Shown in pieces: positions 45,264-50,397 of a DNA stretch of 64,000 nt. The position numbers and the translations under genes were made by a program. The stretch is from Polyangiales bacterium. Lineage in GTDB: Bacteria; Myxococcota_A; Polyangia; Polyangiales; Ga0077539. The notes beneath the pieces are model-generated. The model made no database searches and was not told the DNA's origin. It saw nothing but the letters and a program-made list of their open reading frames with translations. The stretch's first letter is position 1. Every line of letters starts with the position of its first letter. The stretch is from assembly GCA_044229975.1 (NCBI GenBank), contig JBGARZ010000015.1:128001-192000 (forward strand). Direction: 5' to 3'.

Positions 45264-46562
45264 ATGACAGACCTCGGCCCACGCCCGCGCTCGCTCCCCA
45301 TCGCCCCGACCGCGGCGCCCGCCCGGCGCAACCTCCCGCTGGCCAACGAGACCCGCGCCATCGATCAGCGCTGGCGGCCCATCTACGCCGTCTGGGAGAT
45401 CACGCTGCGGTGTGACCTCTCGTGCCGCCACTGCGGCTCGCGCGCGGGTCGTACGCGACCCGACGAGCTCACCACCGAGGAGTGTCTCGACCTCGTGAAG
45501 CAGATGGCCGAGCTCGGCACCAAGGAGGTCACCCTCATCGGCGGCGAGGCGTACCTCCGCGACGACTGGACCGACATCGCCCGTGCCGTTCGCGCCCACG
45601 GCATGGACTGCACGATGACCACCGGCGGCCGCGGCCTCACCTACGAGCGCGTCGTCGCCGCGAAGGAAGCGGGCATCCGCAGCGTGAGCGTCAGCGTCGA
45701 CGGGCTCGAAGAGACCCACGACGCGCTGCGCGGCGTGAAGGGGAGCTTCCGCTCGGCCTTCGAGGCGATGGGTCACCTGAAGCGGGCGGGCATTCCGTTC
45801 TCGGCCAACTCGCAGTTCGGCCGCAAGAGCATCAAGGAGATGCCGGCGGTGTTCGATCGTCTCGTCGAGGCGGGCATCCACTCGTGGCAGACGCAGATCA
45901 CCGTCGCCATGGGGCGCGCCGTCGACGAGCCCGAGCTGTTGCTGGAGCCCTACCAGATGCTCGAAGTGCTCGCGATGCTGGCGCGGCTCAAGCCCGTCGC
46001 CGACGCCAACCGCGTGCGCATCTGGCCGGGCAACAACATCGGGTACTTCGGCCCCTACGAGACGCTCCTTCGCGGAACGCTCCCGCGCGGCCACATGGCC
46101 TCCTGCGGCGCCGGGCGTTCGACGCTCGGCATCGAGGCCGATGGGTCCATCAAGGGGTGCCCGTCGCTGCCGACGCTGGAGTACACGGGCGGCAACATCC
46201 GCGACACGTCACTGAAGGACATCTGGGAGCGATCGGCCCCGCTGCGCTTCACGCGCGACCGCACCGTCGAAGACCTCTGGGGTCACTGCCGTGACTGCTA
46301 CTACAACGACACCTGCCGCGCGGGCTGCTCGTGGACCACGCACGTTCTCCTGGGCAGACCGGGCAACAACCCGTTCTGCCATCACCGCGCGCTGGAGCTG
46401 CTGCGCAAGGGCCGTCGTGAGCGGGTGGTTCGCGTGCAGGCCGCGCCGGGTGAGCCCTTCGATCACGGGCTCTTCGACATCGTCGAAGAGGACTGGCCCG
46501 CCGACGAACTCGAGAGAGCCCAACGACTCGCGGAGACCGGCGAAGGCTGGCTCACGGACTGA
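45264..46562 (+). CDS. Radical SAM/SPASM peptide maturase 1 (PlpX/splicease-like)
   Basis: WEITLRCDLSCRHCGSRAG, IGGEAYLR, PGNNIGYFGP, SPASM cysteines CGAG..GCPSL..CxxC..C...C..NNPFC. Confidence 0.9.
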   Translation: MTDLGPRPRSLPIAPTAAPARRNLPLANETRAIDQRWRPIYAVWEITLRCDLSCRHCGSRAGRTRPDELTTEECLDLVKQMAELGTKEVTLIGGEAYLRDDWTDIARAVRAHGMDCTMTTGGRGLTYERVVAAKEAGIRSVSVSVDGLEETHDALRGVKGSFRSAFEAMGHLKRAGIPFSANSQFGRKSIKEMPAVFDRLVEAGIHSWQTQITVAMGRAVDEPELLLEPYQMLEVLAMLARLKPVADANRVRIWPGNNIGYFGPYETLLRGTLPRGHMASCGAGRSTLGIEADGSIKGCPSLPTLEYTGGNIRDTSLKDIWERSAPLRFTRDRTVEDLWGHCRDCYYNDTCRAGCSWTTHVLLGRPGNNPFCHHRALELLRKGRRERVVRVQAAPGEPFDHGLFDIVEEDWPADELERAQRLAETGEGWLTD

Positions 46563-46580: not shown

Positions 46581-47141
46581 ATGTATCAACCGCTCGCCCC
46601 CTGTCCCGGATGCGCCCGCCACGTGAGGGTCGCCGACCGGAGCTGTCCCTTCTGCGGGACCTCCTTCGCGTCGGCCCTGATCCCGCAGCCCGGCGTCGAC
46701 GCGCGCCGTCGGCTCTCGCGCGCGGCGCTCGTGACCTTCGCCGCCACGCTGGGCGCGGCGGGCTGCGGTGCCACCGTGACCAACACCGACGCGGGCGGCA
46801 CCCTCGACGTCGGTGCGGCGGTCGATCGACCCGTCGCGGTCGACAACGGCGCGCGCGACGCGGGCACACCCGACACTGGCTTCGTGACCCGCGACTCGGG
46901 CGCGCCGGACGACCACGGCGGCCCCGTGGCGGCGTACGGCGGGCCCTTTCCGACCGACGCAGGACCGCCCGACGACGAGGGCAACAGCAGCGCGGACTAC
47001 GGCTCGCCGCCGCCGCGCGACGCGGGCAACGGACCCGACGACGACGGCGGCAGCGCGGCGGAGTACGGCGCGCCGCCCGGTGACAGCGGCTTCTTCCCGC
47101 TGTACGGCTCGCCCCCGCGACCCGACGACGCAGGACTTTGA
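46581..47141 (+). CDS. Putative rSAM substrate 1: Zn-ribbon, lipoprotein signal, 4 XYG motifs
   Basis: C8/C11/C22/C25, RLSR-hydrophobic-GC62, YG at Y119/Y140/Y162/Y175; GAGGAG RBS. Confidence 0.8.
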   Translation: MYQPLAPCPGCARHVRVADRSCPFCGTSFASALIPQPGVDARRRLSRAALVTFAATLGAAGCGATVTNTDAGGTLDVGAAVDRPVAVDNGARDAGTPDTGFVTRDSGAPDDHGGPVAAYGGPFPTDAGPPDDEGNSSADYGSPPPRDAGNGPDDDGGSAAEYGAPPGDSGFFPLYGSPPRPDDAGL

Positions 47142-47201
47142 CAGGGCGGGTGCGCCCGTACTTTCTTCCCACACCCACTAACGCTTGAAAGGAGACTCTT
47201 C

Positions 47202-47735
47202 ATGGCAGCTTCACTGGTTCCTTGTCCCTCGTGCGCGCGGCACGTTCGTTCGACGGAGGGCGCTTGTCCCTTCTGTCGCACGGCGCTGTCGTCCAACCTC
47301 GCCGCCCGCGCGGTGCCCGGCACCACCCAGCGCCTGAGCCGCGCCGCCGCGTTCACCTTCGCGGCCTCCCTCGCCGCCACCGGTTGCGCGAGCGACCCGG
47401 TTCCGAGCGACGCCGCGACCACCACCGACGTCGGAACCGACTCCGGCACCGTCACCGACCGCGGCAACCCCACCGACACGCAGACCCCGGCCGACGTGCA
47501 GACCCCGGCCGATGTGCAGACGGTCACCGACAGCGGCCCGCAGGACAGCGGCGGCGGGATGGCCCTCTACGGCGGCCCTCCGGTGGACAGCGGAACGCAG
47601 ACCGACGGCGGCACCGATCCCGAGGACGGCGGCGGCGTGGCTCCGCTCTACGGCCTGCCCCCGCCCGACGCGGGTCAGGACGGCAGCATCGGTGTTCGCT
47701 ACGGTTCTCCGCCCCGGCCCGACGCCGGGGTCTGA
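47202..47735 (+). CDS. Putative rSAM substrate 2: Zn-ribbon, lipoprotein signal, 3 XYG motifs
   Basis: C8/C11/C22/C25, RLSR-hydrophobic-GC62, YG at Y123/Y150/Y167; AAAGGAG RBS. Confidence 0.8.
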   Translation: MAASLVPCPSCARHVRSTEGACPFCRTALSSNLAARAVPGTTQRLSRAAAFTFAASLAATGCASDPVPSDAATTTDVGTDSGTVTDRGNPTDTQTPADVQTPADVQTVTDSGPQDSGGGMALYGGPPVDSGTQTDGGTDPEDGGGVAPLYGLPPPDAGQDGSIGVRYGSPPRPDAGV

Positions 47736-47737
47736 TC

Positions 47738-49051
47738 GTGCCCGAGCTCCCGCCCCGCCCCCGTTCTCTCCCCATCGCCCCGAAGGCCGAACCCGCGCGC
47801 CGCCGCCTGCCCCTCGCGGGCGAGGTGCGCGAGGTCGACCGCGTGTTTCGCCCCATCATCGCGGTGTGGGAGCTGACGTTGCAGTGCGACCTCGCGTGTC
47901 GTCACTGCGGGTCGCGGGCGGGGCGCAGCCGACCCGATGAGCTCACCACCGACGAGGCGCTCGACCTCGTTCATCAGCTCGCGGCGATCGGCTGCAAGGA
48001 GGTGACGGTCATCGGCGGCGAGGCGTACCTGCGCGAGGACTGGGTGCGCATCGGGCAGGAGGTTCGCGCGTGCGGCATGGAGCTCACCATGACCACCGGC
48101 GGCCGCGGAATGACCCCCGAGCGGGCGCGCGAGGCGAAGCTGGCGGGCGTCGAGAGTGCGTCGGTGTCCGTCGACGCGCTGGAGCCGATGCACGACTCGC
48201 TGCGCGGAGTGCAAGGAAGCTGGCGCGCGGCGATGGCGGCCATCGGCAACCTGAAGGCGGCGGGCATCCCGGTGTCGTGCAACACGCAGATCGCGCGGCC
48301 TGCGCTGCGTGACATCGAGCCGTTGCTGGAGCACCTCGTCGCGGCGGGGATGCACTCCTGGCAGGTGTCGATGACCGTTCCGATGGGCAGAGCGGCCGAC
48401 GAGCCCGGATTGATCCTGGAGCCGTACCAGGTGCTGGAGGTGATGCCGCTCATCGCCCGCGCGGCGCGTCGGTTGAAGCGCGACAAGATCCGGCTGTGGC
48501 CGGGCAATGACATCGGGTACTTCGGCCCGTACGAGACCGAGCTGCGGGGTCGGATGCCGCGCGGGCACATGGCGGCGTGCGGGGCGGGGCGGCTGTCGCT
48601 GGGCATCGAGGCCGACGGGTCGATCAAGGGGTGCCCGTCGCTGCCGACGAAGGACTATGTGGGCGGCAACGTCCGCGACGAGAAGCTGTTGGACATCTGG
48701 GAGCGCGCCGGGGCGCTGCGCTTCACCCGCGACCGCACGCGCGATGACCTCTGGGGCTACTGCGCGGACTGCTACTACGGCGACGATTGCCTGGGCGGGT
48801 GTTCGTGGACGGCGCACGTGGTGTTCGGTCGAACGGGGAACAACCCCTTCTGTCACCACCGGGCGCTGGAGCTGTTGCGGGAAGGAAAGCGCGAGCGGCT
48901 GGTGCTGGAGACCCCGGCGGAGGGCAAGCCGTTCGACCATGGGATCTTCTCGCTGGTGACCGAGGCGTGGCCGGAGGACGAGCTCGCCCGCGCGCAGGAG
49001 GTGGCCGCGACGGGCGAGGGGTGGCTGCTCTCGACGGAGCGGGCGGGTTAG
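47738..49051 (+). CDS. Radical SAM/SPASM peptide maturase 2 (paralog)
   Basis: GTG start 2 bp after the substrate 2 stop; WELTLQCDLACRHCGSRAG; full SPASM Cys set; colinear with maturase 1. Confidence 0.9.
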   Translation: MPELPPRPRSLPIAPKAEPARRRLPLAGEVREVDRVFRPIIAVWELTLQCDLACRHCGSRAGRSRPDELTTDEALDLVHQLAAIGCKEVTVIGGEAYLREDWVRIGQEVRACGMELTMTTGGRGMTPERAREAKLAGVESASVSVDALEPMHDSLRGVQGSWRAAMAAIGNLKAAGIPVSCNTQIARPALRDIEPLLEHLVAAGMHSWQVSMTVPMGRAADEPGLILEPYQVLEVMPLIARAARRLKRDKIRLWPGNDIGYFGPYETELRGRMPRGHMAACGAGRLSLGIEADGSIKGCPSLPTKDYVGGNVRDEKLLDIWERAGALRFTRDRTRDDLWGYCADCYYGDDCLGGCSWTAHVVFGRTGNNPFCHHRALELLREGKRERLVLETPAEGKPFDHGIFSLVTEAWPEDELARAQEVAATGEGWLLSTERAG

Positions 49052-50397
49052 CGGCAGGATTGGCGGGGGCCGCAGCCGGACTCGGTGCCGGGCGCGGTCT
49101 GGGCGCAGCCGGCGAGGTCTTCGAAGGAGTTGTTGCTCGACATGAAGTCGGGCGACGCGGCGCCGCGCCAGCCGCGGAAGATGCCGTGGCCGAGGCCGTG
49201 CGCGATGCGGGTGTTCTGCACGAAGGCCGTTGCGGGAGGCTGCGAGAAGATGATGGTCGAGTCGTGGCTCGCGACGTCGCTGCACGTCAGCAGCACGCAC
49301 CCGCAGTCGCCGCCCGCGTACTCGATGTTCGCGTGTTCGAGGCGGTTGTCGGCCGAGGGAATGCCGCCGTACCAGAGGCCCGACCAGTCGCCCGCGTGCT
49401 GCGTCGGCGCGGCGCTCGTCATGGTGATGGGGCGGGCCGCGGTGCCCACCGCGCGGAGCACACCCGAGGCCGCGAAGTCGCCGGTGTAGTGCTCGATCTC
49501 GAAGCGCGTTCCGGGGTGGAAGCGCATCGTCACGCCGGGCTCGATGGTGAGCGTGGTGCGCCGCGTGGCCTCACGACCGCCCATGCCGATGACGAAGCGG
49601 TCGACCGCCGAGTTGCCGATGCGATACGGGACGCCCCGGTCGCGCAGGGTGGCGTCCGCCTGGAGTCCGCCGCGACCGTCACCGCCCTCGGGGTCGACGA
49701 GGATCTCGTTGGTGCGGTTGCCCGTGTACGTGCCGACCGGAACCGCGTCGATGGCGTGCTCGCCGATCACCATCGGAAAGGGGATCGCCTCGCTCCCGGT
49801 GCGGGTGATCACGAGGTCGGTGGAGCCGGGGGCGAAGGTTCCGGCGCGCTCGACGACGAGGCCGGGGCCGAAGGAGTCCTCGATGGTGACGTGGTCGAGG
49901 AGCGCGACCGGCTTGGCGGGCAGCATCAGGTCGCCGCGCAGCACGAGCGAGGCGTTGTTGTGGAAGCGGTCGCCGCCGCCGTCGGCGAAGTTCACATAGC
50001 GCAGCACCGCGCGGCCGGTGCCCTCGACGGTGACCTGACCCCAGCGGGCGCCCGCGAGGCCCTCGAAGGTGATGGGGCGCTCGGCGGTTCCTTCGGCGAC
50101 GAGGCGGGTGTTGGGGCGCATCACCGTGAGCGAGGCGTCGGCGCGAAACACCACCTGCGCGCAAGGCTCGATGGTGAGCGTGGTGCCCGCCGCGAGGCGC
50201 GTGTCGCCCTGCACCACGTGGGGGCTGGTGGCCGCGGTCCAGGTCTCGCTCTGCTCGATGCTGAGCGGGTGCGTGGTGGGCGTGGTGTTGGTGATGACGG
50301 GACACCCCTGGGCCGACGGCGTCCCTTCGGGCGTGGGGCCGCAGGCGGCGGCGAGCGAGGCGAGGGCGACGGTCGAGAAGATGGCGGCGGTGCGCAT
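49048..50397 (-). CDS. Lipoprotein with right-handed beta-helix-like repeats
   Basis: Lipobox LAAAC; duplicated TLTIEP...GTA..PIT...W module; IEYAGG. Confidence 0.75.
   Translation of the reverse strand: MRTAAIFSTVALASLAAACGPTPEGTPSAQGCPVITNTTPTTHPLSIEQSETWTAATSPHVVQGDTRLAAGTTLTIEPCAQVVFRADASLTVMRPNTRLVAEGTAERPITFEGLAGARWGQVTVEGTGRAVLRYVNFADGGGDRFHNNASLVLRGDLMLPAKPVALLDHVTIEDSFGPGLVVERAGTFAPGSTDLVITRTGSEAIPFPMVIGEHAIDAVPVGTYTGNRTNEILVDPEGGDGRGGLQADATLRDRGVPYRIGNSAVDRFVIGMGGREATRRTTLTIEPGVTMRFHPGTRFEIEHYTGDFAASGVLRAVGTAARPITMTSAAPTQHAGDWSGLWYGGIPSADNRLEHANIEYAGGDCGCVLLTCSDVASHDSTIIFSQPPATAFVQNTRIAHGLGHGIFRGWRGAASPDFMSSNNSFEDLAGCAQTAPGTESGCGPRQSCR

Follow-up and report, generated by a model that had tools for sequence, protein, structure and literature searches.

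We propose that a four-cysteine ribbon at the N terminus of two neighbouring precursor-like proteins, A1 and A2, is a tag recognized by two radical SAM enzymes, X1 and X2, encoded on either side of them. In this main reading, to which the sequence evidence leads us to assign a probability of about 0.6, the ribbon would dock tagged proteins on X1 and X2, probably activating them in the manner of PlpY, and tyramine would be excised at Tyr-Gly-x-Pro sites before the proteins are exported by Sec and, mostly, lipidated. The window, i.e. the whole 64 000-nucleotide stretch of DNA that was analysed, comes from a source assembly (G000) of 10.0 Mb with 71% GC and 93% completeness.

The locus is a plus-strand run of four genes, X1-A1-A2-X2, in which two PlpX-like radical SAM/SPASM genes flank the precursors. 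X1 (45264..46562, + strand; 432 aa) is a radical SAM/SPASM protein of the PlpX/splicease clade with matches to TIGR04103, TIGR03913 and PF04055 plus PF13186, and it lacks a zinc ribbon of its own; X2 (47738..49051, + strand; 437 aa), a second splicease-clade radical SAM/SPASM paralogue, is 66% identical to X1 and also matches TIGR04103 and TIGR03913. The scores of X1 are 511.6 bits for TIGR04103 (cut-off 725) and 494.5 bits for TIGR03913 (model positions 14–390 of 477; cut-off 591.75), those of X2 are 474.3 and 424.6 bits, again below both cut-offs, and the next-best NCBIfam family reaches at most 173 bits. Alignment of X1 and X2 to TIGR03913 is limited to model positions 14–392, i.e. the C-terminal ribbon region of the model is left uncovered. 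In a quick tree with long outgroups and an unreliable root, X1 and X2 clustered with the Nostoc type I enzyme. No further close homologue of X1 or X2 was found in the rest of G000, and the majority of the related loci with an X1 homologue are titled Myxococcota or Polyangiales.

Besides X and A, no neighbour recurs in more than 8 of the 79 related loci. The 449-residue lipoprotein-like protein that converges on X2 (window positions 49051-50397, − strand) has no Pfam or NCBIfam match, and no homologue of it was found in those 79 loci. As the sequence-only reading had stated, no PqqD/PlpY-like gene, protease or ABC exporter accompanies the precursors: ten locus proteins were scanned without a match to the PqqD, protease or ABC families, and the run X1-A1-A2-X2 leaves no space for a Y gene. 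The Nostoc Y candidate has no Pfam match at all, so Y-like genes could escape Pfam scans. The absence of PlpY from the locus is expected, because spliceases outside cyanobacteria generally lack Y (PMC11414181). An orphan RRE encoded elsewhere in G000 was considered and rejected: of the three PqqD matches, one belongs to a pqqC-D-E-like run, one adjoins a different radical SAM gene and one is the partner of a DUF692-like gene (the labels of these neighbours being our own reading of their sequences), and since all three adjoin other enzymes a borrowed RRE is not indicated. Read-through of the X1 stop codon into A1, which is in frame here, was likewise rejected, because the frame is shared at only 14 of 61 related junctions. 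Enzyme stop and precursor start overlap by 4 bases in 17 of the 61 junctions (L017-L095), a tight coupling that could ease enzyme–ribbon fusions. A terminator-like hairpin at 47144-47159 was no better than chance. The one soil RNA library searched held contigs from relatives, at up to 95% identity, one of them running from X1 into the A1 ribbon; they show neither transcription nor co-transcription.

The putative substrate A1 (46581..47141, + strand; 186 aa) consists of a ribbon, a signal-like helix, Cys62 and an acidic tail rich in proline and glycine, and A2 (47202..47735, + strand; 177 aa), also a putative substrate, has the same type of leader. The zinc-ribbon motif, Cys8–Cys25, lies in A1 at 46602..46655 (+ strand; CxxCxRH-x7-CPFC, accompanied by strands in the AF2 model) and in A2 at 47223..47276 (+ strand; identified as a sequence motif). 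The internal signal-like segment, Arg44–Cys62, comprises in A1 (46710..46766, + strand) a basic patch, an Ala-rich hydrophobic helix and a lipobox-like A-A-G-C, and ends in A2 (47331..47387, + strand) with a lipobox-like A-T-G-C. The two N termini had been described as colinear without gaps over 62 residues, and this is borne out: 32 of the 62 residues are identical in the ungapped alignment, against at most 17 in 100 000 shuffles, and among 200 000 gene pairs drawn at random from G000 just 2 had 32 identities or more. Each protein has exactly five cysteines, at positions 8, 11, 22, 25 and 62. The accompanying statement that the tails diverge needs qualifying: they are also related (local alignment score 160, whereas shuffles reached at most 105; 0/2000) and have in common Tyr-Gly-x-Pro repeats and a terminal YGSPPRPD. 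There are four YG-x-P sites in A1 (Y119, Y140, Y162 and Y175) and three in A2 (Y123, Y150 and Y167). The span singled out in that reading, 46581..47387, does cover ribbon and signal, but it stops at Cys62 of A2 and omits YG sites and both enzymes.

The AF2 model of A1 residues 1–62 (mean pLDDT 80.2, pTM 0.46) consists of a two-strand ribbon (strands 5–7 and 14–16, pLDDT 85–89), a linker of lower order and a helix spanning 47–60; nothing PqqD-like was found in the A1/A2 leader, either as a match to PF05402 or in this model with its two strands and one helix. Nor was there a match to Nif11 or DUF1843 (PF08898) in A1 or A2. From the motif we infer that the ribbon binds zinc. Its four cysteines are invariant in the family, its Pfam matches are all sub-threshold, a PDB sequence search returned weak RING matches only, and a search of the ESM Atlas led to unnamed Myxococcota clusters (<0.9).

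Throughout the genome, the leader marks proteins that contain YG. Scanning all six frames and searching with a profile identified 15 ribbon-led proteins in G000, 13 of them outside the X1–X2 locus, and YG-x-P is present in all 15, compared with 306 of the 8071 genes in the rough gene calls made for this analysis. The longer motif YG-x-PP occurs 34 times in G000, in 25 called genes of which 10 are ribbon-family members (three called from a later start); because about 18 occurrences are expected from composition, it is not enriched outside the ribbon family. In a family set of 268 sequences, made up of 253 database matches and the 15 G000 copies, 247 have YG-x-P and 257 any YG, and a tail Tyr is followed by Gly in 670 of 719 cases, as against 5062 of 54 122 (9%) genome-wide. 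A further 40 leader matches were taken from other genomes, chosen away from the listed enzyme matches (one, L181, turned out to be enzyme-adjacent); 37 of these regions yielded 38 ribbon proteins, with YG-x-[PAV] in 34 and any YG in 36, and with a single generic ribbon protein. Database matches to the leader form 3920 clusters at 50% identity and E ≤0.001, generic ribbons being partly included. Three of the G000 members, at C2:191503-192156 (−), C24:61256-61951 (+) and C36:113685-114329 (−), continue after the ribbon with one YG-x-PP and then a more hydrophobic, probably folded domain without a Pfam match, and those on C2 and C24 have type I-like signal ends; together they suggest that ordinary secreted proteins may be among the substrates.

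Among the 79 loci with an X1 homologue, 69 have a match to the leader profile, 67 as a separate adjacent gene and 2 inside the enzyme ORF, and several of the remaining 10 lie on short or cut contigs. When 300 genomes of the phylum were classified, with the enzyme counted at E ≤1e-100, 55 had both leader and enzyme, 9 the leader only, 21 the enzyme only and 215 neither; no P value is given for this table because related genomes are not independent. Twenty ‘enzyme only’ loci comprised 15 with divergent ribbon-led precursors, 2 with two-Cys leaders, 1 cut by a contig end and 2 with no nearby precursor, and in view of the two-Cys leaders and the loci with no precursor nearby the full ribbon is therefore not universal. 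The precursors with the short two-Cys head (L146 and L147, in G007 and G081) keep the lipobox, the YG sites and Asp-rich tails, and their enzymes form one branch. Four of the nine ‘leader only’ genomes were inspected: three had generic ribbons without YG-x-P, and one had precursor arrays beside frameshifted enzyme genes. At L195 (G050:C128:72800-79800) and L194, ten ribbon-led YG precursors stand in an array, half of them without the lipobox Cys, adjoining enzyme genes whose frameshifts reflect assembly error or decay. Covariation between enzyme and leader (101 pairs, Neff 64) gave scattered residue pairs that were uninterpretable.

The ribbon is also found on enzymes. In a Pyrinomonadaceae locus (L051) it forms the C-terminal end of an enzyme that scores 664.6 bits against TIGR03913, above the cut-off of 591.75, and covers model positions 2–475 of 477; the tail by itself matches positions 426–475, and the neighbouring gene encodes a DUF1843 peptide that has a YG site and no ribbon. 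A 639-residue protein without a Pfam match (L051:5505-7424) follows directly after this enzyme. The ribbon is present in 33 of 33 matches to the L051 tail, matches which had themselves been selected on the ribbon; plasmid-encoded enzymes of Azospirillum and Aureibacter, found independently, again have a C-terminal ribbon and adjacent DUF1843 genes. In the quick tree, the nine enzymes with a C-terminal fusion cluster together (SH-aLRT 99); given its long outgroups and unreliable root, we claim no order of events from it. A Tropicibacter homologue carries the ribbon at the N terminus of the enzyme instead (L129:2228-3850, on a Tropicibacter oceani plasmid); the genes that accompany it in its run encode a further radical SAM protein, a phosphotransferase and two peptidases, and the annotation shows no small precursor in the vicinity. 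In the Nostoc type I enzyme the ribbon is missing, and a small gene lies downstream instead. Neither the ribbon nor the enzyme tail showed sequence similarity to the Nostoc Y protein, and the ribbon is therefore no PqqD/PlpY homologue.

Profile–profile comparison of leader and enzyme tail by hhalign gave a probability of 97.3 (E 2.4e-11) over 28 columns, the homology being confined to the ribbon, with the helix that follows lying outside it. Indeed, a profile built from enzyme tails only, when run against the 114 124 ORFs of G000, retrieved exactly the 15 leaders and no others at E 0.1. In an AF2 model of the L051 fusion, the ribbon (pLDDT about 75–78) and helix (86–90) follow a disordered linker and make no contacts, and a fold search with this model found ordinary radical SAM/SPASM structures only. 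In most of the systems without a Y gene that we examined, the ribbon thus sits on either enzyme or substrate. Its fusion to TIGR03913 enzymes whose DUF1843 precursors are ribbon-less implies that the ribbon tracks the splicease and not export.

Translation seems to begin ahead of the ribbon: a start codon lies within 12 codons upstream of it in all 116 genes considered, with a Shine–Dalgarno (SD)-like motif in 86 (11% at random internal positions). An internal start that would bypass the ribbon was rejected, since internal starts with an SD occur in only 5 of the 116. The signal is therefore not at the N terminus of the protein, the Cys being at position 62. Conservation of this residue was examined in the family, where 260 of 268 sequences have a Cys 15–55 residues past the ribbon (with a spacing of 37 in 140), a figure inflated by the ranking of the database set with queries that contained Cys62. 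The residue at −1 is G, A or S in 253 of the 260, and a charged residue within the 13 positions before the Cys is found in only 13; the −3 to +3 profile resembles that of 579 G000 reference lipoproteins, defined by rule for this analysis, and a strict lipobox is present in 135 of 260 family sequences compared with 210 of the 579. Export by Tat was considered and rejected, as the twin-arginine motif RR-x-hydrophobic-hydrophobic occurs in 1 of 252 sequences (any RR in 78). G000 encodes five Lgt-like loci (C38:1023385, C38:977983, C11:41265-42140, C31:41741 and C17:111868) and one LspA; no C39 peptidase was found in it.

Some members lack the cysteine, namely 3 of the 15 G000 copies, which have A-x-A-type ends instead, and 5 of the 10 genes of the L195 array; lipidation would therefore be usual and not obligatory, and the predicted lipid would be the way in which most members are delivered, lying outside the tag itself. 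Several members (4 of the 260 family sequences, and more in other sets) have an X-Y-G site in which the lipobox Cys takes the position of X. This Cys-Tyr-Gly subfamily includes G000 C32:725903-726184 (−) and C36:34482-34751 (+) as well as L131, L132, L134-L136, L155, L156, L163, L182, L189 and L194, and in it one residue would be both lipid acceptor and X of the putative splice site.

Our working model thus begins with translation upstream of the ribbon, for which the start-codon evidence speaks. The ribbon would then engage X in the cytoplasm, as domain fusion and co-occurrence suggest, and X would turn X-Y-G into an alpha-keto-beta-amide, as expected from its homology to PlpX; that X1 and X2 carry out splicing chemistry we regard as very probable. 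The Ala-rich helix would insert at Sec, Lgt would add diacylglycerol to Cys62, and LspA would remove residues 1–61, ribbon included, steps for which DAG-RiPPs offer a precedent. The predicted product would be a lipid-anchored, disordered peptide of the envelope with three or four keto-amides, and the products of all 15 tagged genes would be modified by a single enzyme locus, acting in trans. Judged singly, it is likely from the sequences that the ribbon is a docking or activating module, that Cys62 is lipidated, and that X1 and X2 act in trans on distant genes. As for the role of the product, the analogy with tested spliceotides suggests that it traps proteases at the cell surface, a guess that we consider more probably wrong than right.

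Other explanations share parts of this evidence. The ribbon could be a splicease tag and the helix an uncleaved anchor or an enzyme-binding leader, with Cys62 unlipidated and the proteins remaining in the inner membrane. The signal does lie some 45 residues from the N terminus, behind a module that is folded in the AF2 model, and we found no precedent in the literature examined for lipoprotein signal cleavage that follows a folded extension of 45 residues; conservation at the helix positions R-L-S-R-A-A-x-F-x-F greatly exceeds that of ordinary signals, in the manner of a binding surface, and the helix is slightly less hydrophobic than in the reference set (1.19 versus 1.41). Moreover, the protein at L188 combines a ribbon and YG with a hydrophobic helix that lacks a lipobox, and a leader helix is used by known binary spliceases (PMC11414181). 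We hold this explanation to be improbable even so, as the Cys with its G/A/S at −1 and −3 to +3 profile fits reference lipoproteins of the same genome, and Cys-less members tend to A-x-A cleavage-type motifs, as processed signals would. A double role of the helix, in binding and then in export, is moreover compatible with our working model. Modification by an iron–sulfur enzyme has to come before export, and a ribbon that mainly delays export, or masks the signal until modification is done, would suit that order. The enzyme would then read YGxP cores without the ribbon, as PlpXY and, in part, RhaX do with leaderless cores; RhaX modified one leaderless substrate to about 50%, so the tag may be dispensable (PMC11414181). 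The two-Cys remnant, confined to two loci, is a further point for delayed export. However, the ribbon is also present on the cytoplasmic TIGR03913 C termini and the N terminus of the Tropicibacter enzyme, where no export signal was seen, and it marks YGxP proteins, not exported proteins generally. We therefore judge export delay as the ribbon's main role to be distinctly improbable.

It is also conceivable that X1 and X2 perform some other chemistry on the tyrosine of YG-x-P, such as cross-linking or hydroxylation, or that the ribbon carries metal or Fe-S for them or acts as their redox helper. Four-Cys ribbons can bind Fe, and the family matches of the ribbon motif are confined, weakly, to rubredoxin-like and RING families; X1 and X2, for their part, score below the TIGR04103 and TIGR03913 cut-offs. 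Against this, PlpX and TIGR03913 are the best families by a wide margin (about 500 bits versus at most 173), X1 and X2 group with the Nostoc type I enzyme, and the conserved substrate motif is exactly X-Y-G, which makes such alternatives highly improbable. The notion that the ribbon is a generic myxobacterial zinc-ribbon-plus-membrane-helix head, unrelated to the enzymes, draws on the weak scores that generic ribbon proteins obtain with the profile (all three of those among the ‘leader only’ matches checked) and on weak matches of the ribbon to TcaA and UPF0547. It is largely refuted, and its residual probability is very small, given YGxP in 15 of 15 proteins, a separate adjacent precursor at 67 of 79 enzyme loci, the reciprocal profile match and the enzyme fusions.

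Docking and splicing followed by export remains our preferred reading. The proposal that the ribbon acts as an enzyme-docking leader has thus gained indirect support, from the enzyme fusions, the genome-wide marking of YGxP proteins and the co-occurrence with enzymes, and is likely to be right. Delayed export, put forward with it, fares worse and is disfavoured as a main role, because the ribbon is present also on cytoplasmic enzymes that have no signal sequence. Coupling to the lipoprotein pathway is plausible and has a precedent: lipidation of Cys62 accords with the conserved lipobox and the presence of Lgt and LspA, but it cannot be obligatory in a family with Cys-less members. The novelty that had been claimed for replacement of the RRE and for RiPP–lipoprotein coupling is reduced by published accounts of Y-less spliceases (PMC11414181) and DAG-RiPPs (PMC13056109). 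No description of a ribbon-led or lipoprotein spliceotide precursor, or of a TIGR03913 ribbon, was found in titles and the beginnings of abstracts, and Scott et al. 2022, who typed 939 predicted systems (figure taken from PMC10533398), may cover the clade.

If the main reading is true, a four-Cys ribbon would add a third mode of splicease–substrate engagement to the PqqD-type RRE and the Y-like helix, and it would account for the unannotated C-terminal ribbon of TIGR03913 enzymes and for their leaderless DUF1843 peptides. DAG-RiPPs would be extended from MNIO enzymes to radical SAM chemistry, and membrane-anchored products would predict where to seek native spliceotides, which were called elusive in 2022 (PMC9811515). 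A portable tag of about 25 residues, for which nature offers a large library of cores, would also be of use in introducing beta-amino acids into proteins. More tentatively, and with less than even confidence, the sequences could be read as a genome-wide modification regulon of Myxococcota addressed by a portable ribbon, in which one splicease locus rewrites at least 15 envelope proteins, lipid anchors bear keto-amide warheads, the Cys of Cys-Tyr-Gly becomes a keto-beta residue, and the ribbon is a non-RRE activator that has moved among enzyme C terminus, enzyme N terminus and substrate N terminus. This regulon, equally tentatively, might take in substrates whose domains appear folded and whose signals are of type I, and ribbon shuffling might be the natural counterpart of engineered enzyme–leader fusions.

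The closest known systems are the type I PlpXY/PlpA and PcpXY/PcpA of Pleurocapsa (TIGR04103; PMC11414181, PMC11002830), whose enzymes belong to the same clade as X1 and X2, whose substrates have multiple X-Y-G sites and whose enzymes need a small partner element. They have a Nif11 or NHLP leader and a separate Y, whereas the A1/A2 locus has neither and no C39 exporter was found; here the partner element would be the four-Cys ribbon on the substrate, and the substrates bear signals and are scattered over the genome. The binary, Y-less type II systems RhaXA, RcsXA and RasXA (PMC11414181, PMC11626197) are likewise two-component, with a leader that replaces Y and is movable to the enzyme C terminus; that leader consists of a helix resembling Y (types II, III and V have been aligned), in contrast to the zinc ribbon and lipoprotein-like signal found here. 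Since PlpY or the leader of RhaA activates the splicease and still works when fused to the enzyme C terminus (PMC11414181), the ribbon would, by analogy, be its functional parallel. TIGR03913, the GDL-motif peptide-associated maturase, is with DUF1843 (PF08898) a sister enzyme family that has the same ribbon, carried there by the enzyme C terminus and here by the substrates, the TIGR03913-associated peptides being short and free of ribbon and signal. In the DAG-RiPPs DybA and NedA (PMC13056109), maturation is published as cytoplasmic modification followed by Lgt, LspA and Lnt in place of a dedicated protease or exporter, as is proposed here, but with MNIO enzymes and an N-terminal signal where we have radical SAM enzymes and an internal one; the words ‘radical’, ‘splice’ and ‘zinc’ are absent from the main text of that paper. 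Type II pamtides (PMC10787088), finally, also derive from a RiPP precursor with a zinc ribbon, yet in these the ribbon is of DnaJ type, forms the modified core, is acted on by a methyltransferase and is not accompanied by a signal, whereas in A1 and A2 the ribbon would serve as the leader.
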